Assembly: GCA_015062395.1 (NCBI GenBank)
Contig: SUUS01000001.1
Coordinates: 65,429 to 129,428 of the forward strand
Direction: 5' to 3'
DNA from: Alphaproteobacteria bacterium
GTDB lineage: Bacteria > Pseudomonadota > Alphaproteobacteria > CAAHEQ01 > UBA3637
Length of the DNA: 64,000 nucleotides
Shown: positions 41,042 through 61,948 of the stretch, piece after piece
Position numbering within the stretch: the stretch's first letter is position 1
Layout: the number at the start of each line of letters is the position of its first letter
Position numbers and translations under genes: made by a program
The notes under the pieces: generated by a model
Told to the model about the DNA's origin: nothing
What the model saw: only the letters and a program-made list of their open reading frames with translations
Databases searched by the model: none

Positions 41042-41388
41042 ATATCTCGAACGGTACAGGAACATACGCATTCATCGATGCTCAATTAACTGGAGATTTT
41101 TTAAATACTTTATATAACTTAGATGCAACAACAGAACAAGGAAAACTTATTGTATCTGAAAAATCTGCAGAAGATATTGCAAGTAATACAGGTATTTCCA
41201 CTGATGCGGCGGCCACAATTTCTGGATTAGCTGGTTCAGATAATGAAAAAGCTCAATCTATTGCAACCTATATTGAAAGCGAAATTAACTCCGGAAATAC
41301 TGATATCGTAGAAAAGATTACCAACAACATTAATCCGACTTCAAATCCTGTTGTTCAATCTGTATCAACAGAAGTTAATGGGCAAATT

Positions 41389-42414: not shown

Positions 42415-42443
42415 TTGACAAGCATTTTTTTATTGTCTATAAT
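42415..42443 (+). promoter_or_regulatory. Perfect consensus sigma70 promoter for tRNA-Pro(TGG)
   Basis: TTGACA (42415-42420) - 17 nt - TATAAT (42438-42443), 10 nt upstream of tRNA 5' end. Confidence 0.75.
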
Positions 42444-42453
42444 GCCTTTTATT

Positions 42454-42530
42454 CGGAGCGTAGCTCAGTCTGGTAGAGTACTTGGTTTGGGACCAAGGTG
42501 CCGTAGGTTCAAATCCTATCGCTCCGACCA
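42454..42530 (+). tRNA. tRNA-Pro (anticodon TGG)
   Basis: 77 nt cloverleaf folded by hand: acceptor CGGAGCG/CGCTCCG, anticodon stem CTTGG/CCAAG loop TTTGGGA, T-arm GGTTCAAATCC, A73, CCA encoded. Confidence 0.9.
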
Positions 42531-42537
42531 ATATAAA

Positions 42538-42567
42538 AAAGCGGAAGTTTATACTTTCGCTTTTTTT
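42538..42567 (+). terminator. Rho-independent terminator after tRNA-Pro(TGG)
   Basis: gcggaagt-ttat-actttcgc hairpin then T7. Confidence 0.75.
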
Positions 42568-43058
42568 GTTGTCCAATTCCCCTGCAAAGCCCTAGGACAG
42601 CCAACTGCTGAAAAGTGATTTTATACCAAAATCGATGTGGTTGCCGAGATTTTTCCAAATTGATATATACTTTTGCCCGAATATATATACCTTGTGCAAT
42701 GTGATTTTTTCGCCAGAGCCACTTGACCGTAAGTTATTGTTTTTGAATAATTGATTATAATGGTATGACATTAACTTTCCGAATCTTGCCAAGCAGTGGT
42801 TGGTTTAGAAACCCAAAAACTGATACCACAATTTGCACACACCTCTAAAAGCCTTATTTTATAAGGAGTTTAAATTTTTTATAACTTATACACATGGTGT
42901 TTGGGGCATATAAAGAGATTTTCATTTTTTTTGAAAAAAATGACTATTTTCTTGCAATTTTAGGTAGAAGTCGTTAAAATGTGACGGATTATAATTTTAT
43001 GCTGATAAATGAGGTGTTTTCATGGCAGACGATATTCAAATTCAAAAAATGGACGGCA

Positions 43059-43178
43059 TCACCTTTTTTTCAAGCTTTTTGTGATTGCTTCAATACCCGC
43101 TTTTACAGCGCGGTCAGCATCGGCCTTGGTTAATCCTGCTGTTTTAGCAATAGCTTCAACTAATTCTGTTTTATTCAT
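43059..43178 (-). pseudogene. Remnant of HU/IHF-family DNA-binding protein gene (first ~39 codons intact, then frameshift/decay)
   Basis: Minus-strand translation MNKTELVEAIAKTAGLTKADADRAVKAGIEAITKSLKKR* with AAGGAAA RBS; matches HU N-terminus (MNKTELV..IA...L.K)...; stop within poly-A tract; downstream frames do not resemble HU. Confidence 0.45.
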
Positions 43179-43322
43179 TGTATTTTCCTTTCTTTATATA
43201 TAAAGTTAAATGAAGGCTCATGATACCTTCATTTAGTATTAGAGAGAATTTAGATGGGTATGTCAAGAGGAAAATTAATTATACCAATAATCTGCATTAA
43301 GAGTGGCCAGTAATCTTTTTTC

Positions 43323-43351
43323 TTGACAAAAAAACAAAAAAGTGATATAAT
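43323..43351 (+). promoter_or_regulatory. Perfect consensus sigma70 promoter for second proS
   Basis: TTGACA (43323-43328) - 17 nt - TATAAT (43346-43351); RBS agagagagg before ATG 43394. Confidence 0.7.
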
Positions 43352-43393
43352 ACGACATCGTGTTTTAAACATAAAAAGAGAGAGGCTATAAAA

Positions 43394-44908
43394 ATGACTT
43401 TAAAAAATACAAGAGCGAGCAACTATCCTGAGTGGTATCAGAATGTCATAACTGCAGCTGATATGGCAGAAGTATCTTCTTCGCCAGGATGCATGGTTAT
43501 TAAGCCTTGGGGGTATGGGATATGGGAACGTATTCAACGGGTTCTAGATGATAAGATCAAAGAAACAGGTCATGAGAATTGTTACTTTCCTCTATTTATT
43601 CCTTTAAGCTATTTTCAAAAAGAAGCAGAGCATGTTGAAGGTTTTGCTAAAGAAATGGCAATTGTTACTCATAGTCGCTTAACTATGCAAGATGGCAAAT
43701 TGACACCTGATGGAAAATTGGAAGAACCTCTTATTGTTCGTCCTACCTCTGAAACAATTATTGCGGATTCGTTCTCAAAATGGGTCAAATCATACAGAGA
43801 TTTGCCAATTATGATAAATCAATGGGCAAATGTTGTCCGTTGGGAGATGAGACCAAGAATCTTTTTACGAACAAGAGAGTTTTTATGGCAAGAAGGTCAC
43901 ACTGCACATGCTAGTTATGAGGAAGCGGAACAAGAAGCAAAAACCATGTTGAATGTGTATTCTGATGTGGCACGAGATGCTTTGGCTATGCCTGTTATAA
44001 AAGGACGCAAGCCCGAGCATGAAAAATTCCCAGGCGCTGTTGATACATATTGTATAGAAGCAATGATGCAGGATGGTAGAGCTTTACAAGCTGGTACCTC
44101 GCACTTTTTAGGCCAAAATTTTGCCAAATCAGCTGATATTAAGTTTCTAGGTAAGGATGGGAAACAACAATATGCATACACAACCTCTTGGGGTGTAACG
44201 ACACGTCTAATTGGTAGCTTAATTATGACGCACGCTGATGATGAAGGAATGGTCGTTCCTCCAAAGATTGCACCACATCAAATTGTTATCGTCCCTATCA
44301 TCAAAGATAAAGCTCAAAGAGAGGAAGTAATGTCCTACGTGATGCGCTTGTATTCTGCTTTATCTAAACAGAGCTATGATGGCGAAAAAATTCGTGTAAA
44401 AGTTGATACAAGAGACAAGGAATCTGTAGACAAAATGTGGGAGTGGACACGAAAAGGTGCCCCCATTGTATGTGAGGTTGGACCTCGTGACGTAAAAAAC
44501 AATGGTTTAATGGTCAGAACAAGAAATAAGATCAACACCCCAGAATGGAAACAAGTTGTTCAGTTTGATGATTTTGTTTCATCAGCTTCTAAGAGGTTGG
44601 AAGATTTCCATATGGATTTATATAACGCTGCGAATACTCGTTTACAACAAAATCAAAGAACAGATATTACAACGGCAGAGGAAATGCAAGCATATTTTGC
44701 GCAACAAAACTCTTGGGTAAACGGTCAAGGGCAAAAGGTAGCTTTTGTCCGTGGCAAATGGTCTGAAGATCCAGAAAGCGTTGATAAAATGAAGGAAATG
44801 AAAATTTCAATTCGCTGTATTCCTGAGGATCAATCTCAGAAGGAAGGAAATTGCCTTTTGACTAATAAAAAAGCGAAACTTGATGTTATTTATGCAAGAT
44901 CTTATTAG
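43394..44908 (+). CDS. proS: Proline--tRNA ligase, archaeal/eukaryote-like type (504 aa, C-terminal Tyr)
   Basis: Class II ProRS motifs (IVRPTSETII, FLRTREFLWQEGHTAH), no INS insertion, C-terminal domain ending ...IYARSY typical of archaeal-type ProRS. Confidence 0.9.
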   Translation: MTLKNTRASNYPEWYQNVITAADMAEVSSSPGCMVIKPWGYGIWERIQRVLDDKIKETGHENCYFPLFIPLSYFQKEAEHVEGFAKEMAIVTHSRLTMQDGKLTPDGKLEEPLIVRPTSETIIADSFSKWVKSYRDLPIMINQWANVVRWEMRPRIFLRTREFLWQEGHTAHASYEEAEQEAKTMLNVYSDVARDALAMPVIKGRKPEHEKFPGAVDTYCIEAMMQDGRALQAGTSHFLGQNFAKSADIKFLGKDGKQQYAYTTSWGVTTRLIGSLIMTHADDEGMVVPPKIAPHQIVIVPIIKDKAQREEVMSYVMRLYSALSKQSYDGEKIRVKVDTRDKESVDKMWEWTRKGAPIVCEVGPRDVKNNGLMVRTRNKINTPEWKQVVQFDDFVSSASKRLEDFHMDLYNAANTRLQQNQRTDITTAEEMQAYFAQQNSWVNGQGQKVAFVRGKWSEDPESVDKMKEMKISIRCIPEDQSQKEGNCLLTNKKAKLDVIYARSY

Positions 44909-44913
44909 AAAAA

Positions 44914-45573
44914 ATGAGCAAAATTTTTCTTTATCATGTAGATAAATCAAAAATTGATGAGTCTCAGCTTTCTGTTCTGGAGTCTATTTTGTCAGCAACA
45001 GAAAACAAAAGATTTAAAAAGATAAAAATGATAGATGCGAGAAAGAATTTTATTCTTTCTCGTTTTCTGATTAATAAGGCATTAATGAATTTCAATTGTG
45101 CGCAAAGATTTCATATTGGTAGAACTATATATGGGAAACCATATTTATCTCCAAATCCTAAAAATTTAAAAATATCAATAAGTCATACGAGAGATATTAT
45201 TTGCCTTTTAATTGCAAAAAATATAGAGTTTATAGGTGTTGATATAGAGGAAAAAAACAGAAAAATAAATAAAAAAGGTATTATAAATTTTCTGTACTCT
45301 CCTGATGAAAAATTGTATCTTAAAACAAAAGATTTGTATAAAAATTTTTTTAAATATTGGACCTTTAAGGAGGCATTTACGAAAGCTCTTGGAAAAGGAC
45401 TTTTAATTCCATTTAATCAAATATCCTTTTCCAAAAAATACCAAAAGTATTATGTTACCTCTGTGCCTATTGATATAAACTCTAATACAACAGGGTTCAT
45501 AGTATGTTTAGATAAAAATGAAAGATCAGCCGATATTAACATAAATAATGTTATTATAGGAGGGATAAAATGA
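44914..45573 (+). CDS. 4'-phosphopantetheinyl transferase, Sfp/EntD type
   Basis: 219 aa; motifs ISISHTRDIICLL and FIGVDIEE (metal-binding GxD..E), FKEAFTKALGKG (W/FxxKEA-K motif). Confidence 0.75.
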   Translation: MSKIFLYHVDKSKIDESQLSVLESILSATENKRFKKIKMIDARKNFILSRFLINKALMNFNCAQRFHIGRTIYGKPYLSPNPKNLKISISHTRDIICLLIAKNIEFIGVDIEEKNRKINKKGIINFLYSPDEKLYLKTKDLYKNFFKYWTFKEAFTKALGKGLLIPFNQISFSKKYQKYYVTSVPIDINSNTTGFIVCLDKNERSADININNVIIGGIK

Positions 45574-46409
45574 AAAGAATTTGTATTGCGACAGATGAAG
45601 ATAATATCAATGATCCTGAGAATTTACTAATTAGTAAAATTCTTAATGACATGGGAGCTAAAGCAGAATTGACTATTTGGGATAAACAAGAAAGTCTTTT
45701 CAAAGATTGCGACTATGTTTTAATTCGTTCTTGTTGGAATTATCACAAATACCCAGATAAATTTATTCAATGGATAAATTCTCTCAATATTCCAACAATC
45801 AACGCTAAGAGTTTAATCCAATGGAATATTCATAAAAAATATCTTCTTGAGTTAGAAAAACACAATATTGAAATTCCAAAAACATATGTTATTCAAAAAG
45901 AAAATGTAAAAGATTTTAATTTTAATATATTTGATGAATTTGTAATAAAACCAGCAATATCAGCAAGTGGCTATTTGACATATAAATATAATAAAAATGA
46001 TAGTGAAAAGGTAAATTCTTTACTTCCATTGTATTCTTCAGATGTTTTAATACAAGAATTCATTCCGGAAGTAATACAAGAAGGTGAAATATCCTTTGTA
46101 TTTTTCAACAATAGCTTTTCACATGCTGTAAAAAAAATACCTTCACTATCTGATTTCAGAAGTCAAGCAAGATATGGAGGAACTGTTAAAAATTTTATTC
46201 CAAATCAAGCTTTAAAAAATAAGGCAGTAGAAATAGTACAAAAAATCATGGATATCACTAACGAATGCCCTTTCTATATGAGATTAGATGCGGTTTTGAG
46301 AAAAAATAATTTAGTTATAATGGAAATTGAGGCAATTGAACCCAGGCTTTTTTTATCGAATTCAAATTGTGATATCTTTAAAAAAGCTTGGCAATCTATT
46401 CTTCCTTAA
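45570..46409 (+). CDS. ATP-grasp family ligase (RimK/glutathione-synthetase-like)
   Basis: ATP-grasp pattern FVIKPAISASGY...LIQEFIPEV...GEISFVFF; ATGA-coupled to PPTase. Confidence 0.6.
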   Translation: MKRICIATDEDNINDPENLLISKILNDMGAKAELTIWDKQESLFKDCDYVLIRSCWNYHKYPDKFIQWINSLNIPTINAKSLIQWNIHKKYLLELEKHNIEIPKTYVIQKENVKDFNFNIFDEFVIKPAISASGYLTYKYNKNDSEKVNSLLPLYSSDVLIQEFIPEVIQEGEISFVFFNNSFSHAVKKIPSLSDFRSQARYGGTVKNFIPNQALKNKAVEIVQKIMDITNECPFYMRLDAVLRKNNLVIMEIEAIEPRLFLSNSNCDIFKKAWQSILP

Positions 46410-49400
46410 CTGTATCTTCTAAAAGGGATATATACAAAGAAGCCCAGTCTTTAATGGTATTTATATCAAAACGATGAACATGATACCAAAAATTAAAACG
46501 AAGATTGCTTTTCTGCATGTCGACTATCAGAAATAATCCCGCTAATTCTCTTAAGGTTGAATAGTTTAATGTATTCAACAATGGTTCTGAAATGGTTCCA
46601 AGTGTTTCTAAAACTTCTACTTTAGGCCAGACATTGTCTTTTTCTTTGTGATAATTATTCAGCATGATATAGGCATCTGTGAAATAACTTGATCGAGAGA
46701 AATTCAAAAACTTTTCGACATACTTAGGTAAAAGATTCACTGGGTAGTAAGACCTTTCATTCACAAGAGATACAATACTATTAATTTGGGTTATTTGTGT
46801 CATATTAGAAAGAGTTTCATCTAAAGAAATCGGAAGTGGGAATTGTTTAACGAATGGGCCTATTGTTTCTTTAAAATTATCCTCTGTTCGTCCATTGAAA
46901 ACAGTTCCTATTAATAAATTATGTTGTCTTGTTAATTTTACCAATAACTTCGAATAAACAAACAACAATACTGAAAAAACGGATACATGCGCTTTATGAG
47001 CAAATTTATTTAAGGATTCATATACTTTTTCTGAAGAAAAAATGGTATAGCAACTTGACGGATAACACTGTTCAAAAAATTCATCTCCGGTTTTATTTGG
47101 CAAAATTACAGGACGTGCAATACCAGCATATAACCCACCAAAGAAGGCTTCATTTTCCTTTTCTGTCTCCAGTAAAAATTTATGTTGCCAATCTACATAT
47201 TGATCATAGAGAACTGGATTTGGGAGTCTCAAATGTGATTTTTGAAGAAAAGAGGCATAAAATTTTCTTAATTCTTCAACAAATACCGTCACAGATGTTC
47301 CATCGAATGGCAAATGATGCGTAAAAAGAAGACATATAAACTGATTATTATTTAACTTTAAAATTTTTAAAATCCAAGGTGGGGTTTTTGTAATATCAGG
47401 AAAAGAAGATGTTAACGTACATGCTAAATTTTTTATATATTCAGCAACATTTTCTACACCCTTCATATTCACAAAAATACTTTCACTAGAAATGAAATCT
47501 TTTATATTACAAGTTTCATAATGATTATCAACATAACAATGTGTCAAAATTGGATGTCTTGAAATAACCTCTTTTAAGGCGTTCAAAAATGAATTCTTTT
47601 TTAGTTCGCAATGGAAAAGTATTGGTATCAATAAATATCCATATTTAATTCTTTCTAATGCCACCCACCTTTGTTCTTCATATGATAACTTGTTTTCACT
47701 ATTGTTCTTATCCAAGACAATCTCTGTTTTTTCACATAGTTTTTTATCCAATGATTTACTGGAACAATTTTTGATACAAAAGGCTGTTAAATTTCTTAAA
47801 GTTCTTTCTTTAAATACAACACTAACAGGGAATGAAATATTTAACAAATGTCTAATAGCGTTACGTAATTCTATTGCGCTTAAAGAATCAAGTCCCAAAT
47901 CAAAAAGATCATCATCTTTTTCAATATGGCAATTATGTGTATATTTGTCTAAAACTCGAGCAACTTCGGATGAGACAATACTAGGAATGTCTTGAATGCT
48001 GTATTGAGTTAATGTATCCGTGTTCTTTTCCTCAACAGGCAAATAATCTTTTGCTAACAATCTAAAGAACGGGCTATTTTCGAGTTTATATTTTCTTAAA
48101 AAGATATTCCAATTCATAGGTAATAAAATTACCTGTTCTTGTAAACTAAGTATTGATGACATTATCTCATCGAAATCGTTTTTTTTAAGATAAGAATATC
48201 CCTTTTCTTCTAATTTCTGCTGTAGATTCTTGTTTATATCAATAGTTCCTAAGTCCCCCCATGCTCCCCAATTAATACTTAATGCTGGTAATCCCAAAGA
48301 TATCCTATATTTACACACAGAATCCAAGAATGCGTTTGCTGTTGTATAATTAGATTGTCCAGGATTTCCTATTACGGATACAGCGGAAGAAAAGACTACA
48401 AAAAAATCTAACTGTGTATTTAAAGAGAGTTTATGTAAATTCCATACTCCAAGAACCTTTGCCTTTGCAATTTTCTTAAAGTCCTCCATAGTCGTATTTG
48501 TAAAGGATTTATCCTCAATACAACCAGCCGCATGCACAATTCCACCGATATTTTTTATATCAAGTTTTGAAGACAATGCAAAAAACTTGCTCTCATCGGA
48601 AATATCCATACTTATATATTCTAGGTCTAATGTGTCATCAAGCAGCTTTAAAGTTCTTATTTGTTCTATCACCTCATTCTTTTCCCGACGGCCAACTATC
48701 ACAATTCGTTTTGCACCATTTTTAATGAGCCACTTACTGGTTAAAAGTCCTAATGCACCTACCCCCCCTGTCACTAAATATTGTTTTTTAGGAACTATAG
48801 TGAGTTTCCGTTCTGATGATAAAGAAATGGGGGCTAAAGTTGCTTCAAAGACACTTTTCCCGCCTGGATCAATTTGAAAAAAACTAAACGACTTTTGCTG
48901 ACGTATACACGAAGCAATCTTTGAAATAGAATTTTCTGTCAATGCCTTTGCAAAAAAACAAGAGCATTTGATTTCTGAATTTTCAAGACAAATTGTTTTT
49001 AAAAGAGAAACTAGAGATTCATTTAAAAAGTCATTACCAACAAAAATAAACGAAATATTTTCTATTTTCCCCATTAAAAAGGCTTCTTTTAAGGAATAAA
49101 AAACGTTTTTGATCTTATTTAAATAAAGCCTTAAGATATCAGATGAGGTGTAATTCTGCACATCATCGGAAATACTGTCTATAACATATACAATACGTTC
49201 TATTTTCTTCTTAAAAGAATCAAGTTTTTCTTTTAAGAAGAATGAGTTATTTGAAATATCTGTACTTACAAGGAGATTCTTTTCTGATGAGAAGTGTGCT
49301 ATTTGACTTTTATCTCCTATAATTAACGAATTCTCTATATAAGATTTAGAAAAATTAGAAAGCGAAACTGATTCCCATTGAATTTTGTATAAATCGTTTC

Positions 49401-52400
49401 TCCAACTTGCCTTTTGTAATAAATCAACCGGCTCAAGATAATATTTTTTTAAATCAAAAGGATAAGTTGGTAGTTCAATTAATAAACAATTATCTTTCGG
49501 TAGGATATGGTCAAAATTAACGGATATTCCTTTCGAAAATAATTTTCCAAATGCTGAAAGTAATTGTTCTGTATCATCAGTAGTTTTTCTCATCATAGGT
49601 ATATATGTTGCGTTCTGCTCATCATAACATTCTGCAACCATATTAAGAAGCACAGAATTTGGACCTATTTCCAAGAAAATATCAACATCCTTATTTTTTA
49701 AATTATGGATCATATTTTCAAAATTGACAGGTTGAATCATGTGGTTACACCAATAGTCTGAAGATATTTCTCCTGTTTGAATAAAATCCCCCGTTACATT
49801 TGAAAGTAATTTTATAAAAGGATCCTTAAATGAAAATTTGGAAAGATATTTTTTATATACCGCCACAAGGGGATTAGCAACACTTGAATGGCCAAAACTG
49901 CTGTTATCTAATTTTTGTGCTTCAATCTTCTGATCATGTAAAGCTTTAAAAAGTGATAGTATTCTCTCTGTTGGACCAGATACAACCACTAAATTAGGTG
50001 TATTGATAGATGCTATAGATATCTCATTATAGTTTTCCAACAGTTTTTCGACAGTATTTTTATTAGCTCTGATTGCTAACATTTTTGCATGAATTTTTAA
50101 TGAAGTTAACAAAACAGCTCTATGATAAACTATTTGAAGTAATTCATTTAATTTTAGTATACCAGCACAGTAAGCTGCAACGTATTCTCCCAAACTATGT
50201 CCTAATACAAATTTAGGCAAAATTGCCATTTGTTTTAAAATTTCTAGAATAGATACTTCTATGGCTACAATTGCCAGTTGATTTAAAATAACATCTTGTT
50301 CTGAATATTTTTCCTGTTTCCATATTATATCGATTAGATCAAAATCCGTAAATTTCTTTATAATTTTATTACATTCCTGAATCTTTTTCTTAAAAATAGC
50401 ATTTTTCTCATACAGCCTCTTTCCCATCCCAAAATATTGAGATGTATAACCAGAAAAAATAAAGGCAAGCTGTTGTTTTTGTGAGACCTTAAAATCATCT
50501 TTTGTAACAGATGGGAGTTTTAATCGTTTTTCAGTATTTGACAGTTCGTATATCAAACGATCCATTGTATTCGCAACAAAAGAGACCCTATAATCAAAAT
50601 GATATTTCCTCTTTAAAAGTGAATAAGAGATATCCTGTAGACGTAAATCACGATGATTTTCGAAGAAAATTCTATGATTGTGTATTATTTTAACTAAATC
50701 CTCGAATTTCTTTCCAGAAAAAACAAACAAATAAAAATTATTCTTTTGTTTTGTTTGGTTGTTTTTTTTGTGTGAATAACTTTCTAAAATGACATTAGCG
50801 TTAGTACCACCAAGACCAAAGGAATTCACTAAGCAATAATGTTTCTTTGATTTCCAAGGGATCGTTTTATTATTTACATAAAAGGGAGAATCATCCAACT
50901 CCAATAAGGGGTTATTTTTTTTAAAATGAAGTGTAGCAGGTATTTGTTTATGCTGAATACATAAAATTGCTTTTATTATCCCTGCCATGCCAGAAGCCCA
51001 ACCGAGATGACCTATATTAGTTTTTACGCTCCCAATAACGCAATCCCTTTTCCTATTATTACCGAAAACATTTTTTAATGCTTGGATTTCAACTGCATCT
51101 CCAACGACAGTTCCAGTTCCATGTGTTTCAATAAAAGAAATTTTATCTGGCAGTATGTTTGCATCTTTTAAAGCTTGCTGTAATGATCGTGTTTGTCCAT
51201 CAATTGTTGGTGCTAGAAAATTAGATTTCCCATTATTTCCATCATTACTAACACCACTTCCTGAAATAATGGCTAAAATATTATCTTTATCTTTTATGGC
51301 TTTTGATAGTGGTTTTAATAAAACTACTCCTAATCCTTGGGCCATCATCATACCTTCTGATCTTTCATCGAAAGTACGTGTATGGCCATCTGGTGACCAA
51401 GGCATGTCTTTTTGGAAAGTATATTTATGTTTTGATGGGGACATAATGTTTACAGCACCAACTAGTGCCATTTCACATTCTCCATTCAAAAGAGCTTGTT
51501 TTGCCAAGTGAATTGCAACCAACGATGAAGAACATGCAGATTGTACATTAATACTTGGTCCTTCTAACCCCAATTTAAAGGAAACTTTTGTTGGTAAGTA
51601 ATCCTTATCCCCGCCCATCATAACTTGCAAATCCGAAAAACGTTCGAAGAAATACCTATTAGAACGATAATCTAAGTTTGGGTTAAGGTTATTAACAAGA
51701 TAGCTACTAAATCCTTGGGAAGCAAAGACTCCTATCTTTTTAGTCGTATTATTGTTAAGATATCCTGTTTTTTCTAGTAGTTCCCAAGATAATTCCAAAA
51801 ACTTTCGTTGTTGTGGATCCATCATTTCTGCTTCAGTCTTTGAATATCCAAAGAATTCAGCATCAAACAAATTTGCATCATCAATTGTAGATGAACAAAA
51901 TACATCATGCTCAAAGGGATCCAGCATTGACAAATCCTGTGATGGGCCAAAAGATTCGATACTTTCTTTACCAGTTGAAAGAAAATTCCAAAATTCGTCA
52001 GGAGTATGGCACTTAGGAAAATTGCATGCCATTCCTATTACAGCGATTTTTTCTTTTACAGGTTTTCCAAAATCTTGAATAACTGCTTCTTTCCCCTGTA
52101 TTATATTTCCTTTTAAGAGATCAGATACAGCATTAAATGTACTATTTTTTAGTAGCATAGCAACTGGTATTTTTTGCTTGAATGTTTCGAAAATTTTCGT
52201 GTATAGCTGAAGCAAGAGTAATGAGGTTCCACCTAGCTCAAAGAATGTCTTATTTTTGTCAAAGTCGGTTATGTGCAAAAGATCTCGCCAGATTTCTTCC
52301 AACTTAGTCAATTCTGAATGGGTTGTTGTTTCTTTTTTTTCTATATACGTTTGAATTAATACTTTTCTATCCAGTTTCCCTGACGGGGTTCTCGGTAATT

Positions 52401-53811
52401 TGTCAATTACGACAAAATCTTTAGGAGTCATATAATTAGGCACCAGAGTACCAATGGATTGCTTTATATCCAAAATCTCAGTTTTTTCGTTTTTCAAGAC
52501 AATAAAAGCGACAAGGAAAGTGGGCCGATTTTCAGCCATTATCGGACAAACAGCACATTCAAGAACATTTTTATCTTTTGATAATAGGTACTCTATTTCT
52601 GCAAGTTCTATTCTATACCCACTTATTTTTACTTGGTCATCTTTTCGCCCAACGAATTCAAGTTGCTTTTTCTTGTTTAGCTTGACAATATCGCCTGTTG
52701 CATATAGAAGATTTTTTGTGTTTTGAGGATCTGGGATGAAAGATTTATTTGTATCCTTTGGATTATTTACATACCCTTTAGCAATAAACGGAGCACAGAT
52801 AAACAATTCACCCTCCGTAGTAGCTGTAAGTTTTTCATTTAGAATTTTTAACTGTATATTGGATATAGGCTTTCCTATGGGAGGGAGTTTCCCCCACTGA
52901 TTAACATTCTTTGGTAATGTAAACGAAGTGACAACATGGGTCTCACTCGGACCATACTGATTGATTAGACGGCAATGCTTTAGAATTTTAAAAAAAGAAC
53001 GAATTACTGGCGTTATAATCAACTGTTCACCGGCTGTGATTACTTCTTTAAGAGAGGTAGGAAAGGTTTTATTAAGATCTGCGATTTGCGCTATGTAATT
53101 TAACATTACTGCGGGGAGAAAAATCCGTTCAATCTTGAACTTGTCAATTAAGTACAGCAGTTTTTCAGGATCTTTTCTTTCATTTTCTTCAATCAGTACT
53201 AATGAAGCACCCGTACATAAAGTAGAAAAAATTTCTTGAAAAGAAACATCGAAGCTAATTGGGGCAAATTGTAATGTTCTTTTTATCGCAGATTCTTTAA
53301 TTTGCCATGTAATAAGATTTTCAAGAACTGATGTTGGCATAACAACACCCTTTGGAGCTCCCGTAGAACCAGAAGTAAATATAATATAGGCCAATTTACC
53401 AAAACCGTTATTGTTTACGGTTTTATTTCCCCTTGAATTTTTAATTATCTTTTCAAAAAAAACAAACTTTTTATTTCTTTTGTCAATGGTTACATCATCT
53501 GTGATAATTAAATTTGTACCGGATTTTTCCTGCATAAAATTCAAACGCTCGACAGGATAACTCTTATCAAGTGGAACATAAGGGTTTCCAGACTTTAGAA
53601 TTCCTAAAATAGAGATAATTAACTCTATTGATCTGTCAAATAGTACTCCTACTGGTTTCTTATAATTTAATGATTTTATATAACCTGCAACTAAATCTGA
53701 TTTGAAATCTAATTCTCCATAAGTTAGCTCTATACCATCCTTAATAATGGCTACCTTATCGGGAGTCTCGACACAAATCTTCTTAAAATTGTTATATAAA
53801 CTACTTTGCAT
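46396..53811 (-). CDS. Hybrid NRPS-PKS megasynthase: A - T - KS - AT - KR - ACP - C (2471 aa)
   Basis: A domain cores (LTYGEL, LKSGNPYVPLD, YIIFTSGSTGAPKGV, YATGD, GRKDDQVKISGYRIELAEIE, PSGKLDR); T (ELGGTSL, Ser ~530); KS (QSACSSS Cys~760, ETHGTGT, NIGHL); AT (GHSLGE Ser~1206); KR (TGGVGALG, NYTTAN); ACP (LGLDSL Ser~1976); C-terminal condensation domain (HHLPFDG ~2165-2171); no TE. Confidence 0.9.
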   Translation of the reverse strand: MQSSLYNNFKKICVETPDKVAIIKDGIELTYGELDFKSDLVAGYIKSLNYKKPVGVLFDRSIELIISILGILKSGNPYVPLDKSYPVERLNFMQEKSGTNLIITDDVTIDKRNKKFVFFEKIIKNSRGNKTVNNNGFGKLAYIIFTSGSTGAPKGVVMPTSVLENLITWQIKESAIKRTLQFAPISFDVSFQEIFSTLCTGASLVLIEENERKDPEKLLYLIDKFKIERIFLPAVMLNYIAQIADLNKTFPTSLKEVITAGEQLIITPVIRSFFKILKHCRLINQYGPSETHVVTSFTLPKNVNQWGKLPPIGKPISNIQLKILNEKLTATTEGELFICAPFIAKGYVNNPKDTNKSFIPDPQNTKNLLYATGDIVKLNKKKQLEFVGRKDDQVKISGYRIELAEIEYLLSKDKNVLECAVCPIMAENRPTFLVAFIVLKNEKTEILDIKQSIGTLVPNYMTPKDFVVIDKLPRTPSGKLDRKVLIQTYIEKKETTTHSELTKLEEIWRDLLHITDFDKNKTFFELGGTSLLLLQLYTKIFETFKQKIPVAMLLKNSTFNAVSDLLKGNIIQGKEAVIQDFGKPVKEKIAVIGMACNFPKCHTPDEFWNFLSTGKESIESFGPSQDLSMLDPFEHDVFCSSTIDDANLFDAEFFGYSKTEAEMMDPQQRKFLELSWELLEKTGYLNNNTTKKIGVFASQGFSSYLVNNLNPNLDYRSNRYFFERFSDLQVMMGGDKDYLPTKVSFKLGLEGPSINVQSACSSSLVAIHLAKQALLNGECEMALVGAVNIMSPSKHKYTFQKDMPWSPDGHTRTFDERSEGMMMAQGLGVVLLKPLSKAIKDKDNILAIISGSGVSNDGNNGKSNFLAPTIDGQTRSLQQALKDANILPDKISFIETHGTGTVVGDAVEIQALKNVFGNNRKRDCVIGSVKTNIGHLGWASGMAGIIKAILCIQHKQIPATLHFKKNNPLLELDDSPFYVNNKTIPWKSKKHYCLVNSFGLGGTNANVILESYSHKKNNQTKQKNNFYLFVFSGKKFEDLVKIIHNHRIFFENHRDLRLQDISYSLLKRKYHFDYRVSFVANTMDRLIYELSNTEKRLKLPSVTKDDFKVSQKQQLAFIFSGYTSQYFGMGKRLYEKNAIFKKKIQECNKIIKKFTDFDLIDIIWKQEKYSEQDVILNQLAIVAIEVSILEILKQMAILPKFVLGHSLGEYVAAYCAGILKLNELLQIVYHRAVLLTSLKIHAKMLAIRANKNTVEKLLENYNEISIASINTPNLVVVSGPTERILSLFKALHDQKIEAQKLDNSSFGHSSVANPLVAVYKKYLSKFSFKDPFIKLLSNVTGDFIQTGEISSDYWCNHMIQPVNFENMIHNLKNKDVDIFLEIGPNSVLLNMVAECYDEQNATYIPMMRKTTDDTEQLLSAFGKLFSKGISVNFDHILPKDNCLLIELPTYPFDLKKYYLEPVDLLQKASWRNDLYKIQWESVSLSNFSKSYIENSLIIGDKSQIAHFSSEKNLLVSTDISNNSFFLKEKLDSFKKKIERIVYVIDSISDDVQNYTSSDILRLYLNKIKNVFYSLKEAFLMGKIENISFIFVGNDFLNESLVSLLKTICLENSEIKCSCFFAKALTENSISKIASCIRQQKSFSFFQIDPGGKSVFEATLAPISLSSERKLTIVPKKQYLVTGGVGALGLLTSKWLIKNGAKRIVIVGRREKNEVIEQIRTLKLLDDTLDLEYISMDISDESKFFALSSKLDIKNIGGIVHAAGCIEDKSFTNTTMEDFKKIAKAKVLGVWNLHKLSLNTQLDFFVVFSSAVSVIGNPGQSNYTTANAFLDSVCKYRISLGLPALSINWGAWGDLGTIDINKNLQQKLEEKGYSYLKKNDFDEIMSSILSLQEQVILLPMNWNIFLRKYKLENSPFFRLLAKDYLPVEEKNTDTLTQYSIQDIPSIVSSEVARVLDKYTHNCHIEKDDDLFDLGLDSLSAIELRNAIRHLLNISFPVSVVFKERTLRNLTAFCIKNCSSKSLDKKLCEKTEIVLDKNNSENKLSYEEQRWVALERIKYGYLLIPILFHCELKKNSFLNALKEVISRHPILTHCYVDNHYETCNIKDFISSESIFVNMKGVENVAEYIKNLACTLTSSFPDITKTPPWILKILKLNNNQFICLLFTHHLPFDGTSVTVFVEELRKFYASFLQKSHLRLPNPVLYDQYVDWQHKFLLETEKENEAFFGGLYAGIARPVILPNKTGDEFFEQCYPSSCYTIFSSEKVYESLNKFAHKAHVSVFSVLLFVYSKLLVKLTRQHNLLIGTVFNGRTEDNFKETIGPFVKQFPLPISLDETLSNMTQITQINSIVSLVNERSYYPVNLLPKYVEKFLNFSRSSYFTDAYIMLNNYHKEKDNVWPKVEVLETLGTISEPLLNTLNYSTLRELAGLFLIVDMQKSNLRFNFWYHVHRFDINTIKDWASLYISLLEDTVKEE

Positions 53812-54043
53812 GATTCTGAATGAAACTCACAACATCCCCTATCGCTTTCATTTTGGCTATTTCTTCATTTGGAAAAGAAATATTAAATTTTTCTTCCAAC
53901 CGAAAAAATAAATCCATTTTATCTAAGGAATCCACTTCCATTTCTTTAAAAGACATATCACTGGTCAATATCTTATCATGTAAAGCGAACTTTACCTCTT
54001 TTAACGTTTCTTGAACTATTTGAAAAATATCGTTATCACTCAT
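53801..54043 (-). CDS. Discrete acyl carrier protein
   Basis: 80 aa, MEVDSLDKMDL with DSL phosphopantetheine-attachment motif; overlaps megasynthase start by 11 nt. Confidence 0.75.
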   Translation of the reverse strand: MSDNDIFQIVQETLKEVKFALHDKILTSDMSFKEMEVDSLDKMDLFFRLEEKFNISFPNEEIAKMKAIGDVVSFIQNHAK

Positions 54044-55004
54044 TTTTGCCTCCTGTCAATGTTAATAAACAATTACACCAAGAAAAACCCGTTCCAAATC
54101 CAGATAATACAAGGTAATTAGCATCTTTTTGTTTCAGATGTGGCTCTAGGATTAATGGGATTGATGATGAACTCGTATTACCATAATTAGCCGCTTTGAA
54201 TTTTAACTGATTTTCTTTTAGATTCAGGGTCGAAGATAATCTTTCCAGTAGATATCTTGATGGTTGATGACACAAAAACTCAGAAATATCACAAGTATCC
54301 AGTCCGTTTTTTAACAATAAGTTTTTAATTGATGCTGGAATTTCTTTCAACACATTATTAAAGACCATACGACCATCCATTCTTAAAAAATTTTTTTCTA
54401 TTATGGTCTCATAAGAATTTGGCAATGTTCCAAAATCCCAATCTTTTAAAATATATCCTGTTGAAACATCTTTTGTTATATAAGTCACTGTTGCTGCGTC
54501 GCCAAAGAGTAATACTGTATTTTTATCTTTTGGGTCTAGAATCCTCGATAACTGGTCACATGTGAAGAAGAGAGCGTTTTTCAAATGAAGGGTTTTCATC
54601 ATAGATAAAACGGTTAGTAAAGCATGGCAAAAACCAGCACATCCTTGACCGATATCAAAAGTAATACATTTTTTTGATAAACCTATTTTATTATGTAAAA
54701 TCGCGGACATATATGGAGCCTTATGATCTGGTGTTTGTGTTACCGTACATACTAAATCAATATTTTCAATGTCAATTTTGATTTTTTTCTCTAAATCATG
54801 CCATGCAGATAAACACATATCAGCCAAAGTCTGATGTTCTTTTATTTTAGACCTCCTAATTATTCCCAATTTATTTTCTATGAAATCTGGACTTACCTCA
54901 AAAGTTGTTAATAAATCCATATTATTTACATAGTTATCTGGAATATAAGTGCCAATACATTTTATTTTAAAGTTTTGCAAGCTCATCCCTCCTATTGATT
55001 TCAT
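54036..55004 (-). CDS. 3-oxoacyl-ACP synthase III (FabH-like KAS III)
   Basis: Active-site Cys in GQGCAGF, His/Asn region, C-terminal GFGTGFSW. Confidence 0.8.
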   Translation of the reverse strand: MKSIGGMSLQNFKIKCIGTYIPDNYVNNMDLLTTFEVSPDFIENKLGIIRRSKIKEHQTLADMCLSAWHDLEKKIKIDIENIDLVCTVTQTPDHKAPYMSAILHNKIGLSKKCITFDIGQGCAGFCHALLTVLSMMKTLHLKNALFFTCDQLSRILDPKDKNTVLLFGDAATVTYITKDVSTGYILKDWDFGTLPNSYETIIEKNFLRMDGRMVFNNVLKEIPASIKNLLLKNGLDTCDISEFLCHQPSRYLLERLSSTLNLKENQLKFKAANYGNTSSSSIPLILEPHLKQKDANYLVLSGFGTGFSWCNCLLTLTGGKNE

Positions 55005-56067
55005 ATATTGGGAAATATGTTGGAATTTCAGAATTTTGATAATCTAGTATTAGTTGTGGAATATCTTCCCAACAATAGGTATACACGTCATCTATTATAG
55101 GCATCCAATTGTGCGAAATTGCATAGTTCATCGCATCTAAAGCTTCCTGACGATTTGCATAATGAGTATTTACATGTATGTGTCGATTAATGCATTCAAC
55201 CGTTCTTGAAATAGGAAGTAAGGATCCTGTCTTCCAACCACATGATGAAATTACGGCGTTCCTTCCCAATCCTTTTAGTGCTATTTTTGTGAATGTTCCT
55301 CCTAAATTATCTATAAATATTGATGCTCCCTCATTATGTGTTTCTCTTGAAATATACGACAAAAAATCTTTTTCAAAATCCTTAAATGTGGTTCGATTTA
55401 TGGGGATTATCCCTGAAGAACGAGCATATCTCTCTCTGTACTCATTTGATACCGTCATATAAACACTAAACCCCACTTTTTTTGCGAGAAGAAGTTCAGC
55501 ATATGAAACTCCACCACCATAAGCAAAAACGGACAATCCCTTTGGCTTTCGTTTCGAAAAGGTTTGTATTTTCCAACAGCCATACGCTTGCCGCCAATTT
55601 GAATAAGCAGAAATGAAGCGACCAGAGAATGCGGCCCATTGTTTCAAGGAAAATTGTGAATTTGGGGGTATCTTAATAACCTGTTCCTCTTTCAATTTGA
55701 TTTTTTTTGCTAAATTTCCCATAATTCCTTTTGCATCATAACCCGCTATCTTTATCGGATAACCTTGGGCGTCAGAGATACCATTCCCAAAATAAATGGC
55801 AAAATCACCAATTTCCACTGAGGAAACCTTCTTTCCTCTATTTTGAATATAAAGAACACCAGTATTACCCAAAATTATTTCTTCTTCTGCTCTATCTTCA
55901 TTAATGTTTGTGGGAACTTTTTGTACAGCATGTAAGATGTTTGCTTCAAAACAACCATAAACAGGTAAAGCCAATACCTCATCATCCTCAATATCCGGAA
56001 AATGAATTATTTTTCGTTCTAAAATAGATGAATCCTTCTGTAAAACATACGCCTCTGTTTCAATCAT
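54967..56067 (-). CDS. Medium-chain dehydrogenase/reductase family oxidoreductase (putative trans-acting enoyl reductase)
   Basis: MDR fold with nucleotide-binding AYGGGVSYAELLLAKKVG; operon position between KAS III and DH. Confidence 0.55.
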   Translation of the reverse strand: MIETEAYVLQKDSSILERKIIHFPDIEDDEVLALPVYGCFEANILHAVQKVPTNINEDRAEEEIILGNTGVLYIQNRGKKVSSVEIGDFAIYFGNGISDAQGYPIKIAGYDAKGIMGNLAKKIKLKEEQVIKIPPNSQFSLKQWAAFSGRFISAYSNWRQAYGCWKIQTFSKRKPKGLSVFAYGGGVSYAELLLAKKVGFSVYMTVSNEYRERYARSSGIIPINRTTFKDFEKDFLSYISRETHNEGASIFIDNLGGTFTKIALKGLGRNAVISSCGWKTGSLLPISRTVECINRHIHVNTHYANRQEALDAMNYAISHNWMPIIDDVYTYCWEDIPQLILDYQNSEIPTYFPIYEINRRDELAKL

Positions 56068-56840
56068 TTTTTGCTCCGAAGTAAATACGTTTTACTCAAA
56101 GTACTTGGCTGTATTTTGGATATTATACTAAAACCAATTTGTTTAATCTCATCCTCTGATACATCTTCGTATAAAAGAGTTGCAGCTTTTTGTGGTAAAC
56201 GTAACAGAATATTAACATTAGTTTTGGCGGTATCTTTAATTTTTAATAATGTTTTTTTCTTATTAGATAGTCCATTTGCTAAAAGTACGATATTTTCATC
56301 CTTATACGAGAAATCAAAGGATCTCTTTTTTATAAACGTGAAATCTTTTGAAATATCTTTGGAGCACGTCTGTTTGATATACGCTTCAGAGGCTTTAAGA
56401 GCTTGTGTATCATAATCCAAACAAACTGGTATAATCCTCTGATAATTTTGTTTAAGTTCAATTAATGTTTCAGGGTGGTATCCACTACCAGCCATAAGAC
56501 AACGTTTCTGGCTGGATAGATCCTTAATAAGATTAAATTCGCAAAGAACTCCAGCATATCCTTCTTTTTCAAGAATGGATATGCTATTTACCTTTTCACC
56601 ATTCAAAAAATCCTTAACCTTGTTCCTTTCTAATTCTTTTATATACTTATTCCATTTTAAAGAAATTTCCTTTTTATCATCAGAAGATAAAGAAGTAAGC
56701 AAGTCAGAGATTTCATTTTCAGATAAACCAATTAAAATCTTCCAAAAATCCTGAAAGACTAATAAGTCAGGTTCAGTGTAATAAGCCTTTAAAGGTATAG
56801 ATAAAACCTTTTGCGTAATTTGTAATATGGACACTCTCAT
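56064..56840 (-). CDS. Hypothetical protein (258 aa), possible SAM-dependent/nicotianamine-synthase-like fold
   Basis: Weak resemblance of CLMAGSGYHPETL and NIVLLANGL to Rossmann-type SAM-binding motifs; in-operon, ATGA-coupled to downstream gene. Confidence 0.35.
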   Translation of the reverse strand: MRVSILQITQKVLSIPLKAYYTEPDLLVFQDFWKILIGLSENEISDLLTSLSSDDKKEISLKWNKYIKELERNKVKDFLNGEKVNSISILEKEGYAGVLCEFNLIKDLSSQKRCLMAGSGYHPETLIELKQNYQRIIPVCLDYDTQALKASEAYIKQTCSKDISKDFTFIKKRSFDFSYKDENIVLLANGLSNKKKTLLKIKDTAKTNVNILLRLPQKAATLLYEDVSEDEIKQIGFSIISKIQPSTLSKTYLLRSKK

Positions 56841-56912
56841 AATTCATACATCAAATCATTCAAACATTTTCGTTTAGTATACTTTAAAATACACCCTAGA
56901 GTCAACAAAAAA

Positions 56913-57353
56913 TTACTCACTGACAGCAGTTGAAGAAAAAATAGCTTCTGCAACAATTCTATTGTTGATTCTAATTGTTCCTTCAAACTTATAAGCATTA
57001 CCGATAGAGTGTTTTTTTATAGCCTCAATGTAAAGAGTATCTCCAGGGCGAGCTTGCCCTCTAAATTTTGCACTTTCAATAGTCATAAAAAGAAAAATTA
57101 AATTATGACATTTTCTTTCTTTAAGGTCAAAATACATCAGTATATTCGACAATTGGGACATTGCTTCAACAAAGAAAGTTCCAGGAAAAATGGGGTTATT
57201 TGGGAAATGTCCTTTTAAGAAGAATTCATCTGATGAAATTTCTTTTATGCCCGAAATTTTATCACTGGTATAGTCCAACACAGCGTCAACCATCAACATA
57301 GGATAACGATGCGGAAGAATTGTTTTTATTTTTTCTAAATCTAAACTTGGCAT
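56913..57353 (-). CDS. 3-hydroxyacyl-ACP dehydratase FabZ-like (hotdog fold)
   Basis: LPHRYPMLMVD and GHFPNNPIFPG FabZ signatures; first gene of minus-strand biosynthetic operon. Confidence 0.8.
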   Translation of the reverse strand: MPSLDLEKIKTILPHRYPMLMVDAVLDYTSDKISGIKEISSDEFFLKGHFPNNPIFPGTFFVEAMSQLSNILMYFDLKERKCHNLIFLFMTIESAKFRGQARPGDTLYIEAIKKHSIGNAYKFEGTIRINNRIVAEAIFSSTAVSE

Positions 57354-57376
57354 AAAAACTCCACTGGCTAGTTAGT

Positions 57377-57440
57377 ATGGAAAATTTGTGATAAGAACAA
57401 CTTTTTAGACAGGGACAAAAGAATGTGTCTAAAAAGTTGT
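57377..57440. repeat. 25-bp perfect inverted repeat (hairpin, 14-nt loop) between tRNA-Pro(CGG) and FabZ-like gene
   Basis: tgtgataagaacaactttttagaca (57377-57401) / tgtctaaaaagttgttcttatcaca (57416-57440), loop gggacaaaagaatg. Confidence 0.8.
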
Positions 57441-57452
57441 TCTTATCACATT

Positions 57453-57529
57453 TGGTCGGAGTGGCGGGATTTGAACCCACGACCCCTACGTCCCGAACGT
57501 AGTGCTCTACCAAACTGAGCTACACTCCG
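57453..57529 (-). tRNA. tRNA-Pro (anticodon CGG)
   Basis: Minus-strand 77-nt cloverleaf: acceptor CGGAGTG/CACTCCG, anticodon stem CTACG/CGTAG loop TTCGGGA, T-arm GGTTCAAATCC, A73, CCA encoded. Confidence 0.85.
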
Positions 57530-57653: not shown

Positions 57654-58073
57654 ATGACAAAGTACGAAGAAAAAGTAAAACAATTTCACAAAGTAATGAA
57701 CTTACCTGTAAATAGTCAATTTAACGTTGAATTATTACAGTTAAGAAAAAAACTTATTTTAGAAGAAACTCAAGAACTTATTGCAGAGTTGGATTATGCG
57801 ATTAACCAACTTCAGACAAAAGATAAGTCCGTTTTACGCCCTACTTTCGAAAATATGTGTAAAGAAATGGCCGATGTACAATATGCTTTATCAGGACTGG
57901 CTATTTCTTTTGGTTTACCGATAGAAGAAGCTTTTGATGCTACACACAACAGCAATATGTCTAAATTAGGTAATGATGGGAAACCCGTTTACAGAGAAGA
58001 TGGAAAGATTACCAAAGGTCCAAATTATCATAAGCCAGATTTATCAAATCTTATTCAGAAAGTAGAAGAATAA
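57654..58073 (+). CDS. MazG-like nucleotide pyrophosphohydrolase family protein
   Basis: 139 aa all-alpha; EExxE/ExxD-type motifs LILEETQELIAEL ... EMADVQYAL; GGAG RBS. Confidence 0.5.
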   Translation: MTKYEEKVKQFHKVMNLPVNSQFNVELLQLRKKLILEETQELIAELDYAINQLQTKDKSVLRPTFENMCKEMADVQYALSGLAISFGLPIEEAFDATHNSNMSKLGNDGKPVYREDGKITKGPNYHKPDLSNLIQKVEE

Positions 58074-58074
58074 A

Positions 58075-58809
58075 ATGGAAAAATTCATTCAAAATCATCA
58101 CATATACAGCTATGAATGTGACAAAGAAGGAAAATTAAGGTTATTAACATTATTCAATCTTTTGCAACACATGGCCGATTCGCATGCAGATTTATTAAAT
58201 CTTGGATATAAAAATTTTTCCACTCGAAATATAACTTGGGTTGGTTCGCATTATGCACTTCACATAAATAAACGTCCAAAATGGAATGAAAACGTTATTA
58301 TTGAAACATGGCCATCTGGTTTGGGACCTGTTTCTGCGATTCGAGACTTTAGGGTTCTATCCCCCAAAAATGAACCTTTATTTACTGCATCGAGTCAATG
58401 GGTCATAATTGATTTAAGTTCTGGTCGGCCTCAACCGACAAAAAAATATGTTAATAATTTAGAATCGCTTGAAGAAAGAGCTCTTGATACAAAGTTTCCT
58501 ACCATACCAACTGTTCAAAGACAGGATTTTCAGAAAGATTTTTATGTTCGTTACGATGATATAGACATCAATCAACATGTGAATAATGCTATTTATCCTG
58601 TTTGGGCTAGCGAGTCGGTCCCTAATGACTTTAGAGAATCGAACGAAATCGAAGATTTAGAAATTTCATTCAAAAAACCAGCATTTTATGGACAAAAAAT
58701 AAAAGTTTCAACTCAAATTGATGAAAATACATCGCTTCATCAAATTTTTTCAGATGATAAAAGCATTGAATTTGCTCGCATTCGTATAAAATGGCGTAAA
58801 AAAAGTTAA
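58075..58809 (+). CDS. Acyl-ACP thioesterase (FAT/FatA-B family, tandem hotdog)
   Basis: 244 aa; YECDKEGKLRL..., NQHVNNAIY conserved acyl-ACP TE motifs; 1-nt gap after MazG-like gene. Confidence 0.7.
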   Translation: MEKFIQNHHIYSYECDKEGKLRLLTLFNLLQHMADSHADLLNLGYKNFSTRNITWVGSHYALHINKRPKWNENVIIETWPSGLGPVSAIRDFRVLSPKNEPLFTASSQWVIIDLSSGRPQPTKKYVNNLESLEERALDTKFPTIPTVQRQDFQKDFYVRYDDIDINQHVNNAIYPVWASESVPNDFRESNEIEDLEISFKKPAFYGQKIKVSTQIDENTSLHQIFSDDKSIEFARIRIKWRKKS

Positions 58810-61831: not shown

Positions 61832-61948
61832 ATCTTTACCTATCTTATGTAAATTTCATAGCACAAAATATCGCATTTGTGAAGACTTTTGATAAAAAAA
61901 ATCTCCAGTTTTTTACAACTGGAGATTTAATTTTCATTTACTGTATAG

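Follow-up and report, generated by a model that had tools for sequence, protein, structure and literature searches.

A lineage-specific NRPS-PKS cluster between two tRNA-Pro genes as a member of a cluster family linked to E-type prolyl-tRNA synthetase

We analysed a 64-kb stretch of Alphaproteobacteria bacterium DNA (contig SUUS01000001.1 of assembly GCA_015062395.1, positions 65,429 to 129,428 of the forward strand; GC 33%), which we refer to as the window and in which two tRNA-Pro genes enclose a hybrid nonribosomal peptide synthetase-polyketide synthase (NRPS-PKS) gene cluster together with a second prolyl-tRNA synthetase (ProRS2). The best description of the region is a lineage-specific member of a family of ProRS-linked, proline-primed NRPS-PKS clusters, and the interval between the tRNA genes is best explained as a composite and not as an island integrated at a tRNA gene. 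On balance, we lean towards reading this composite as the lineage's own E-type (archaeal/eukaryote-like) ProRS joined to a species-specific cluster for a proline-derived metabolite, in which the ProRS would serve for target-copy immunity; what the product is, and that the ProRS protects against it, we infer from the gene content, its conservation and known parallels. The adjacency of ProRS, by contrast with these, was observed directly as a conserved property of a widespread cluster family.

Linkage of the cluster family to E-type prolyl-tRNA synthetase

Two homologues of the same architecture lay on readable contigs, and both shared with the window the core of MDR reductase, ketosynthase III (KSIII), acyl carrier protein (ACP) and megasynthase, with an E-type ProRS beside it. 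When an alignment of the terminal megasynthase domain was run against metagenome contigs, it gave 18 more family loci, ranging in GC content from 25 to 74%, which encode a collinear megasynthase wherever coverage permits. Thirteen homologous loci, the window not counted, were sequenced far enough to be judged, and in 11 of them (L114, L116, L125, L126, L128 and L130-L135, the remaining two being L119 and L120) an E-type ProRS was found within 10 kb. After grouping close relatives, the linkage is present in about seven independent lineages with GC contents from 25 to 71%. The same search in 87 unrelated control loci, amounting to 1.36 Mb, gave no E-type ProRS. All full-length linked ProRS copies keep the C-terminal Tyr, and the loci without ProRS were short or truncated, L119 excepted.

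In L125 (GC 25%) the ProRS gene lies 139 bp past the megasynthase, and in L134 (GC 71%) it lies 53 bp ahead of it, in both cases on the same strand. Its neighbours in L114 and L130 are the methyltransferase, MFS transporter and beta-lactamase-family gene of the cluster, and it is found there at the position relative to the megasynthase 3' end that ProRS2 also occupies in the window. As the linkage is conserved over such distances, we argue for a functional tie of the cluster family to ProRS. The family is apparently undescribed: no ProRS-linked bacterial gene cluster was found in the literature searched, the coverage of which was incomplete, such that an earlier description may exist elsewhere. 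Its extent can be glimpsed from a profile search with the terminal domain, in which multi-module NRPSs dominate: of the best 150 matches, about 25 clusters (at 50% identity) fit the full-length or split form of the family's megasynthase, by length and match position only. At L114 and L115 (GC 33-36%) the cluster adjoins thin-pilus/shufflon genes (PilO, PilS, T2SSE/F, Shufflon_N) and transposase fragments, and this copy may reside on a conjugative element.

Within the window, ProRS2 (43394..44908, + strand; Pfam ProRS-C_1 (PF09180), TIGR00408) is the first gene of a compact unit that continues with a Sfp-type 4'-phosphopantetheinyl transferase (PPTase; 44914..45573, +; Pfam ACPS, AASDHPPT_N) and a DcsG-like ATP-grasp ligase (45570..46409, +), the latter scoring 99 bits with the NCBIfam DcsG model, under its cut-off of 360, and hence similar at the family level only. 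One sigma-70 consensus promoter with an extended -10 TG (43323..43351, +; a 12/12 consensus match only) precedes the unit. The PPTase gene starts 5 bp past the ProRS2 stop codon and the ATP-grasp gene overlaps the PPTase stop by 4 bp; a homologous PPTase is present in the related clusters L116 and L125.

This tight spacing behind a single promoter bears on whether the association could be a coincidence, in which case the cluster would have landed, or stayed, beside ProRS2 and between the tRNA-Pro genes by genome rearrangement, with no functional tie. Rearrangement around ProRS2 is frequent, given that its neighbourhood differs in every relative examined, and neither the lack of a cluster-specific change in ProRS2 nor the independent promoter and terminator signals of the tRNA genes would be surprising if the genes had met by chance. 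Chance would, however, have to account also for a pairing that recurs in about seven lineages and in none of the control loci, and for a ProRS position that matches that in L114 and L130. Hence, we regard coincidence as rather unlikely.

The megasynthase and its predicted starter

The megasynthase (46396..53811, - strand; 2471 aa) has the Pfam domain order A-T-KS-AT-KR-T-C. For its whole adenylation (A) domain, tyrocidine synthase 2 was the closest among single adenylation domains, with 301 bits. The segment that holds the substrate pocket matched gramicidin S synthase 2 (8p5o, residues 193-338) with 109 bits and tyrocidine synthase 2 (9bfd_B, residues 651-797) with 106 bits, compared to at most 63 bits for all other solved domains; we take these two A domains to be those of the Pro-activating modules GrsB1 and TycB1. 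The pocket read from the alignments, D-V-Q...I-A...V-V-K, has DVQ, IA and VV in common with the references, and the published proline code is DVQ(L/F)IAHVVK. Across the family, the motifs FDVSFQE and NQYGP(S/T)ETHVV were, with small variants, common to six full-length homologues, and, of the 11 metagenomic loci in which the A domain is covered, 10 carried the first of them (FDVSFQE, or FDVAWQE/FDVAFQE). From the pocket match and the retention of these motifs we infer proline, or a close analogue, as the predicted starter of the whole family.

Outside the species, the best match to the megasynthase among 5.8 billion clustered proteins was 34% identical, and no fragmentary orthologue from a relative, which would give a high-identity partial match, was present among these proteins. 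Core genes of the window near the cluster have relatives at 80-92% identity. By this comparison, the NRPS-PKS cluster is lineage-specific. In one same-species contig (L024, 1-6158; JGI sample 3300032167), the megasynthase gene is called in two pieces, of 2236 and 203 aa, with the break inside the A domain; the cause is a frameshift variant or else an error of assembly.

Five further genes of the - strand lie to the right of the megasynthase in the interval. From left to right, a free-standing ACP (53801..54043) and a FabH-like KSIII (54036..55004), which shares 45-48% identity with the KSIII enzymes of homologous clusters, come first, then an MDR-family (ADH_zinc_N) reductase (54967..56067), possibly an enoyl reductase, which is 38-51% identical to its counterpart in homologous clusters, and a 258-aa protein with no family match (56064..56840). 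The last, a FabZ/ApeI-like 3-hydroxyacyl-ACP dehydratase (56913..57353; NF000582 131.5 bits versus a cut-off of 113), shares 37% identity with the dehydratase of cluster L116 and is probably a cluster gene, the alternative being a housekeeping FabZ. Beyond the second tRNA gene, and thus outside the bracket, genes for a MazG-like pyrophosphohydrolase and an acyl-ACP thioesterase (57654..58809, +; Pfam) accompany the cluster in every same-species contig listed that extends so far.

The terminal condensation-like domain of the megasynthase carries the motif (Q/H)H(L/I)(D/P)FDG in 7 of 7 aligned members, which deviates from the canonical condensation motif HHxxxDG. Such a departure would fit a use of prolyl-tRNA as a biosynthetic substrate, with the linked ProRS (and, in the window, the flanking tRNA-Pro genes) feeding a cluster enzyme such as this domain or the ATP-grasp ligase. 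The family-wide ProRS linkage and the presence of two tRNA-Pro and two ProRS genes within 23 kb would fit as well. Copies of aminoacyl-tRNA synthetases (aaRS) that supply aminoacyl-tRNA to biosynthesis are indeed known, namely AcmD/AcmF and SbzA (PMC12945691). The megasynthase, however, possesses its own proline-type adenylation domain and carrier, and a housekeeping ProRS could provide Pro-tRNA regardless. Furthermore, the window alone among the family loci has a tRNA nearby (no tRNA gene was found in the 18 homologous cluster loci scanned), and Pfam and NCBIfam revealed no Fem-like, cyclodipeptide synthase or LanB-type homologue in the cluster. We therefore give a substrate role of prolyl-tRNA a small chance.

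Two synthetases, two tRNA-Pro genes and the origin of the interval

The window encodes two prolyl-tRNA synthetases of different architecture, 7 kb apart. The upstream one, ProRS1 (34919..36637, - strand), is a P-type enzyme with an INS editing domain (Pfam tRNA-synt_2b, tRNA_edit, HGTP_anticodon) that scored 675 bits with NCBIfam NF006625 (cut-off 558), and ProRS2 scored 490 bits with TIGR00408 (cut-off 437), placing both above their equivalog cut-offs and establishing that a second synthetase for proline is present. ProRS2 keeps the C-terminal Tyr (...YARSY), and its nearest solved structure is the ProRS of T. thermophilus. In the contigs of metagenome-assembled genomes (MAGs), ProRS2 homologues form a ladder of 89, 88, ... 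81, 76-73 and 70% identity, the named ones being mostly Alphaproteobacteria bacterium. ProRS1 homologues run from 92 to 82% and then from 74 to 63% in MAGs labelled Alphaproteobacteria bacterium, with Nitrospiraceae, Hydrogenedentota, Lentisphaerota and Clostridia at 50-58% beyond that group. As the relatives of ProRS1 outside the group stand this low, neither enzyme looks like a typical alphaproteobacterial ProRS, and, judged from the two separate identity ladders, both types look like traits of the clade. Within the genome collection, the nearest relatives at species level came from yak rumen and roe-deer gut.

The original prediction had considered that ProRS2 was imported with the island. 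We read five contexts of its orthologues in related MAGs (89, 81, 75, 74 and 70% identical; L008, L010, L011, L013 and L015), and all were different and without PKS: L013 has the order CstA - ProRS - metallophosphatase near dnaA, L008 has transposase - ProRS - radical-SAM genes, L015 has RNase E/G - ProRS - Psd, and in L010 and L011 the orthologue lies among other housekeeping genes. None of the five has a tRNA-Pro gene within 10 kb. Because ProRS2 is kept in cluster-free relatives, its presence in the window needs no cluster, which refutes the import and, on the evidence of these orthologues, makes ProRS2 the lineage's own E-type enzyme. We also looked for a resistance-type substitution in ProRS2. 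Set against 118 close homologues of at least 69% identity, it showed a single departure from residues conserved in at least 93%, K495, which is far from the catalytic core, and we rejected this candidate.

One of these contexts is of interest in its own right. In L008 (10001-21515), the ProRS2 orthologue (81%) is preceded by an IS3-type transposase, and within 47 bp of it begins a series of radical-SAM/SPASM, ScmC-like, nucleotidyltransferase, nucleoside phosphorylase and two more radical-SAM genes, with AlaRS last; this stretch could be a different, nucleoside-type cluster between two synthetase genes. In addition, the relatives L010, L015, L017 and L035 encode many ankyrin, Sel1, MORN and LRR repeat proteins and a type IV secretion coupling protein, and in the window a Fic protein adjoins a cyclophilin (61007-62485). 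The eukaryote-like repeat proteins and the window Fic hint at a host- or protist-associated lifestyle of this rumen/gut clade.

The two tRNA-Pro genes are the only tRNA genes in the window (ARAGORN). ARAGORN and Rfam (66-67 bits) placed tRNA-Pro(UGG) at 42454..42530 on the + strand and tRNA-Pro(CGG) at 57453..57529 on the - strand, the two programs agreeing on the places, and thus bore out the prediction that two opposite-strand tRNA-Pro genes bracket the PKS/NRPS genes and an extra ProRS. The pair is convergent, with both 3' ends pointing into the 14.9-kb interval. The two genes are identical at 62 of 77 positions, encode CCA and have bacterial (P-type) acceptors with C1-G72 and A73; G72 and A73 are identity elements of bacterial tRNA-Pro (PMC11229370). 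Upstream of tRNA-Pro(UGG) lies a sigma-70 consensus promoter (42415..42443, +), which is again a 12/12 consensus match only. Directly 3' of tRNA-Pro(CGG), beginning 2 bp past its end, is a hairpin with a perfect 25-bp stem and a 14-nt loop (57387..57450, -; fold -35.1 kcal/mol, z = -10.7), which is probably the terminator of this tRNA gene, insulating it from the FabZ-like gene. For a terminator, an inverted repeat of 25 bp is unusually long. Near ProRS2 and the tRNA-Pro genes, Rfam gave no match to a leader or riboswitch.

The codon CCG is the sole codon read exclusively by tRNA-Pro(CGG). It makes up 10% of the Pro codons in the cluster genes at 44914-57353 (13/135) versus 5% in the rest of the window (28/550), and none of the 22 Pro codons of ProRS2, a bias towards the cluster that is too weak to use. 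The possibility that the tRNA pair acts as inverted repeats able to invert the segment was rejected, the two genes being 81% identical with exact runs that are only short. Overall, the tRNA-Pro genes look like ordinary chromosomal genes with promoter or terminator signals of their own and an incidental position, and the best reading is that they are neither attachment sites nor part of the signature of the cluster family.

We next consider the interval as a classical island, meaning that a mobile element brought in the cluster, perhaps along with ProRS and tRNA-Pro(CGG), by integrating at the 3' end of one tRNA-Pro gene, and later lost its integrase and attachment repeat. The interval resembles tRNA-gene-targeted islands and integrative elements in having lineage-specific accessory genes beside tRNAs whose 3' ends face the accessory DNA, and the cluster is missing from all relatives sampled. 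Just past tRNA-Pro(UGG), moreover, there is a gene-poor spacer of about 860 bp (42531-43393), the only recognisable content of which is a 39-codon piece from the N-terminal end of a gene for an HU-like DNA-binding protein (43059..43178, -; from the ORF list, with a PF00216 match in same-species contigs). The remainder of the HU gene is gone, and the spacer probably marks an old rearrangement or deletion between tRNA-Pro(UGG) and ProRS2.

The hallmarks of such integration are nonetheless missing. Using Pfam on open reading frames (ORFs) from 100 aa upwards in the interval and from 140 aa upwards in the rest of the window, we found no integrase, recombinase, transposase or insertion sequence (IS). 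No second copy of either tRNA-Pro 3' end was present in the window (25 nt, at most 3 mismatches): the repeat search that the original prediction had proposed returned each end matching itself alone, and no direct repeats of relevance were found in the window. The ORF scans and repeat searches thus agree with the earlier statement that no integrase, IS or tRNA 3'-end repeat is visible. Compositional contrast was absent too, the GC3 of the cluster genes being 0.18-0.31 versus 0.18-0.30 for the flanking genes. Long residence would suit this equality, as the proposal of an old and ameliorated island holds, but it equally fits a donor of similar composition.

No variation in the presence of the cluster was seen among the same-species contigs listed. 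An exact look-up of the MazG-like protein gave 22 same-species contigs, and all 10 places listed (10 samples) have the cluster on the left; the left side was likewise the same in all contigs with ProRS2. Comparison with other relatives showed the gene order PFK-TopA-DprA-PlsY-ProRS1-ABC to be kept in L020-L023 and L035 (ProRS1 84-88% identical), which would place ProRS1 at its ancestral position, outside the bracket. With the closest relative, L035, synteny ends at ~39.7 kb, past the ABC transporter gene (39713) and 2.7 kb left of tRNA-Pro(UGG). In L035 the next genes are an unknown 102-aa ORF and then those for an ankyrin-repeat protein, GroES-GroEL, a Sel1-repeat protein and tRNA-Val. Alignment to relatives, as earlier suggested, did therefore uncover a synteny break, but not at the tRNA, and because synteny already breaks there, no empty site can be defined on the left. 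On the right flank, RecJ used as a single-protein query for relatives had no match in genome contigs or metagenome contigs. The end of synteny at the ABC gene falls about 150 bp before a gene pair at 39863-42213, consisting of a 392-aa ORF without family match and, after a 350-bp gap, a 274-aa passenger-less autotransporter beta-barrel, which could represent an autotransporter gene that is split or in decay.

Hence, integration targeted to a tRNA gene is a mechanism without positive support here. The ProRS2 inside the bracket is a gene shared vertically within the lineage, a core element that further sets the interval apart from tRNA-targeted islands, and the homologous clusters elsewhere are not beside tRNAs. 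Together with the lack of integrase and repeats, the presence of the cluster at all 10 same-species places listed and the position of the synteny break, this leaves the classical island only a slim chance. Of the island notion itself, the lineage specificity of the PKS/NRPS part stands (megasynthase at most 34% identical outside the species), and the link to tRNA integration is without support.

Proposed role of the linked synthetase and its meaning

We consider target-copy self-protection the most likely reason for the ProRS linkage. Protection of a producer against its own synthetase inhibitor is the commonest reason for a synthetase gene in a cluster, and clusters with a self-resistance synthetase include those for mupirocin (IleRS), borrelidin (ThrRS), indolmycin (TrpRS) and albomycin (SerRS). 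In the further clusters for ascamycin and SB-203208, the aaRS copies, the AlaRS AcmD and the IleRS-like SbzA, are described as immunity genes (PMC12945691), and natural inhibitors of ProRS exist in febrifugine, cispentacin and phosmidosine (PMC11229370). The window resembles such systems in having a full-length, apparently functional synthetase gene in or beside the cluster, a second synthetase of the other type for the same amino acid (here ProRS1), and a linkage that homologous clusters retain even in distant hosts. It differs in the amino acid, which is proline, and in that the linked copy is an orthologue kept by cluster-free relatives and not a cluster-specific one; the product and the resistance are predicted.

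In the mechanism that we propose, the assembly core would be an NRPS module that loads proline, fused to a single PKS module and ending in a condensation-like domain. The A(Pro)-T-KS-AT-KR-T line would yield a pyrrolidine with a beta-hydroxy acyl arm, a plausible occupant of a proline pocket, and the terminal condensation-like domain together with KSIII, ACP, reductase and dehydratase would elaborate this arm, with further acylation or cyclisation. The proline-derived product would then inhibit prolyl-tRNA synthetase, with the linked E-type ProRS as the insensitive enzyme and the P-type ProRS1 upstream as the ordinary, sensitive one. As to history, the cluster may have arrived recently beside a resident ProRS2, possibly replacing the cluster's own copy, or cluster and ProRS may have been acquired together in ancient times, after which the relatives lost the cluster and kept the synthetase. 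A beta-lactam product, considered in view of the beta-lactamase-family genes in L114 and L130, was rejected on chemical reasoning, as the predicted chain would cyclise to a five-membered lactam.

In its domain logic the megasynthase resembles SwnK of fungal swainsonine biosynthesis, which is described in the literature as an NRPS-PKS hybrid and has the architecture A-T-KS-AT-KR-T-reductase. Compared by architecture only, both would load a cyclic imino acid on an A-T module, extend it with one KS-AT-KR-T module and release it. The window megasynthase differs in ending with a condensation-like domain versus a reductase, in its predicted starter, proline versus pipecolate, and in belonging to a bacterial cluster that also holds KSIII, ACP, reductase and dehydratase genes and has a ProRS linked to it.

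Several observations weigh against an immunity role for ProRS2 and a proline starter. ProRS2 is not a cluster-specific paralogue, its orthologue is kept by cluster-free relatives, and it shows no active-site change. The well-covered locus L119 has no ProRS within reach, and the E-type ProRS linked to L116 and L125 could, in AT-rich hosts such as these, be the sole prolyl-tRNA synthetase, with a housekeeping function. In the A-domain pocket, a Gln stands where both reference domains have His (NQYGPSE versus NHYGPSE), and the substrate could therefore be a proline analogue. Finally, ProRS1, tRNA-Pro(UGG), ProRS2 and tRNA-Pro(CGG) are gathered within 23 kb, a grouping absent in all relatives examined, which our reading leaves as a coincidence. 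A more specific proposal, which we put forward tentatively as a possibility, is that the family product is a bacterial ProRS inhibitor, a pyrrolidine with a beta-hydroxy acyl arm that resembles febrifugine in function, with the E-type ProRS as immunity and the window cluster fused with the E-type ProRS of the lineage into a single transcription unit. Relatives without the cluster may in that case keep ProRS2 as orphan immunity, and the two ProRS and two tRNA-Pro genes might have been selected to sustain proline decoding during production.

The coexistence of both ProRS types has a precedent in Bacillus thuringiensis, where BtProRS1 and BtProRS2 are a P-type enzyme with the editing insertion and an E-type enzyme with the C-terminal Tyr, and where, as the authors suggested, the E-type enzyme may be kept because it protects against natural ProRS inhibitors (PMC11229370). 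The window is alike in both ProRS types and in tRNA-Pro with G72 and A73. It differs in its host, a rumen/gut alphaproteobacterial MAG lineage, and in that its E-type gene is joined to a predicted proline-primed NRPS-PKS cluster, which is not reported for Bacillus (PMC11229370).

As a tRNA-bracketed island, the interval is ordinary and largely unsupported. A target-type housekeeping gene that is conserved in linkage with a cluster is, on the other hand, the standard cue in resistance-guided genome mining, and ProRS is an actively pursued drug target (halofuginone, for malaria, fibrosis and toxoplasmosis). If our reading of the region as the lineage's E-type ProRS joined to a cluster for a proline-derived inhibitor is true, the family, which spans GC contents of 25-71% and includes rumen and gut organisms, would be a direct route to a natural ProRS inhibitor as well as to naturally insensitive ProRS variants, and it would offer an explanation of why some bacteria retain both a P-type and an E-type ProRS.

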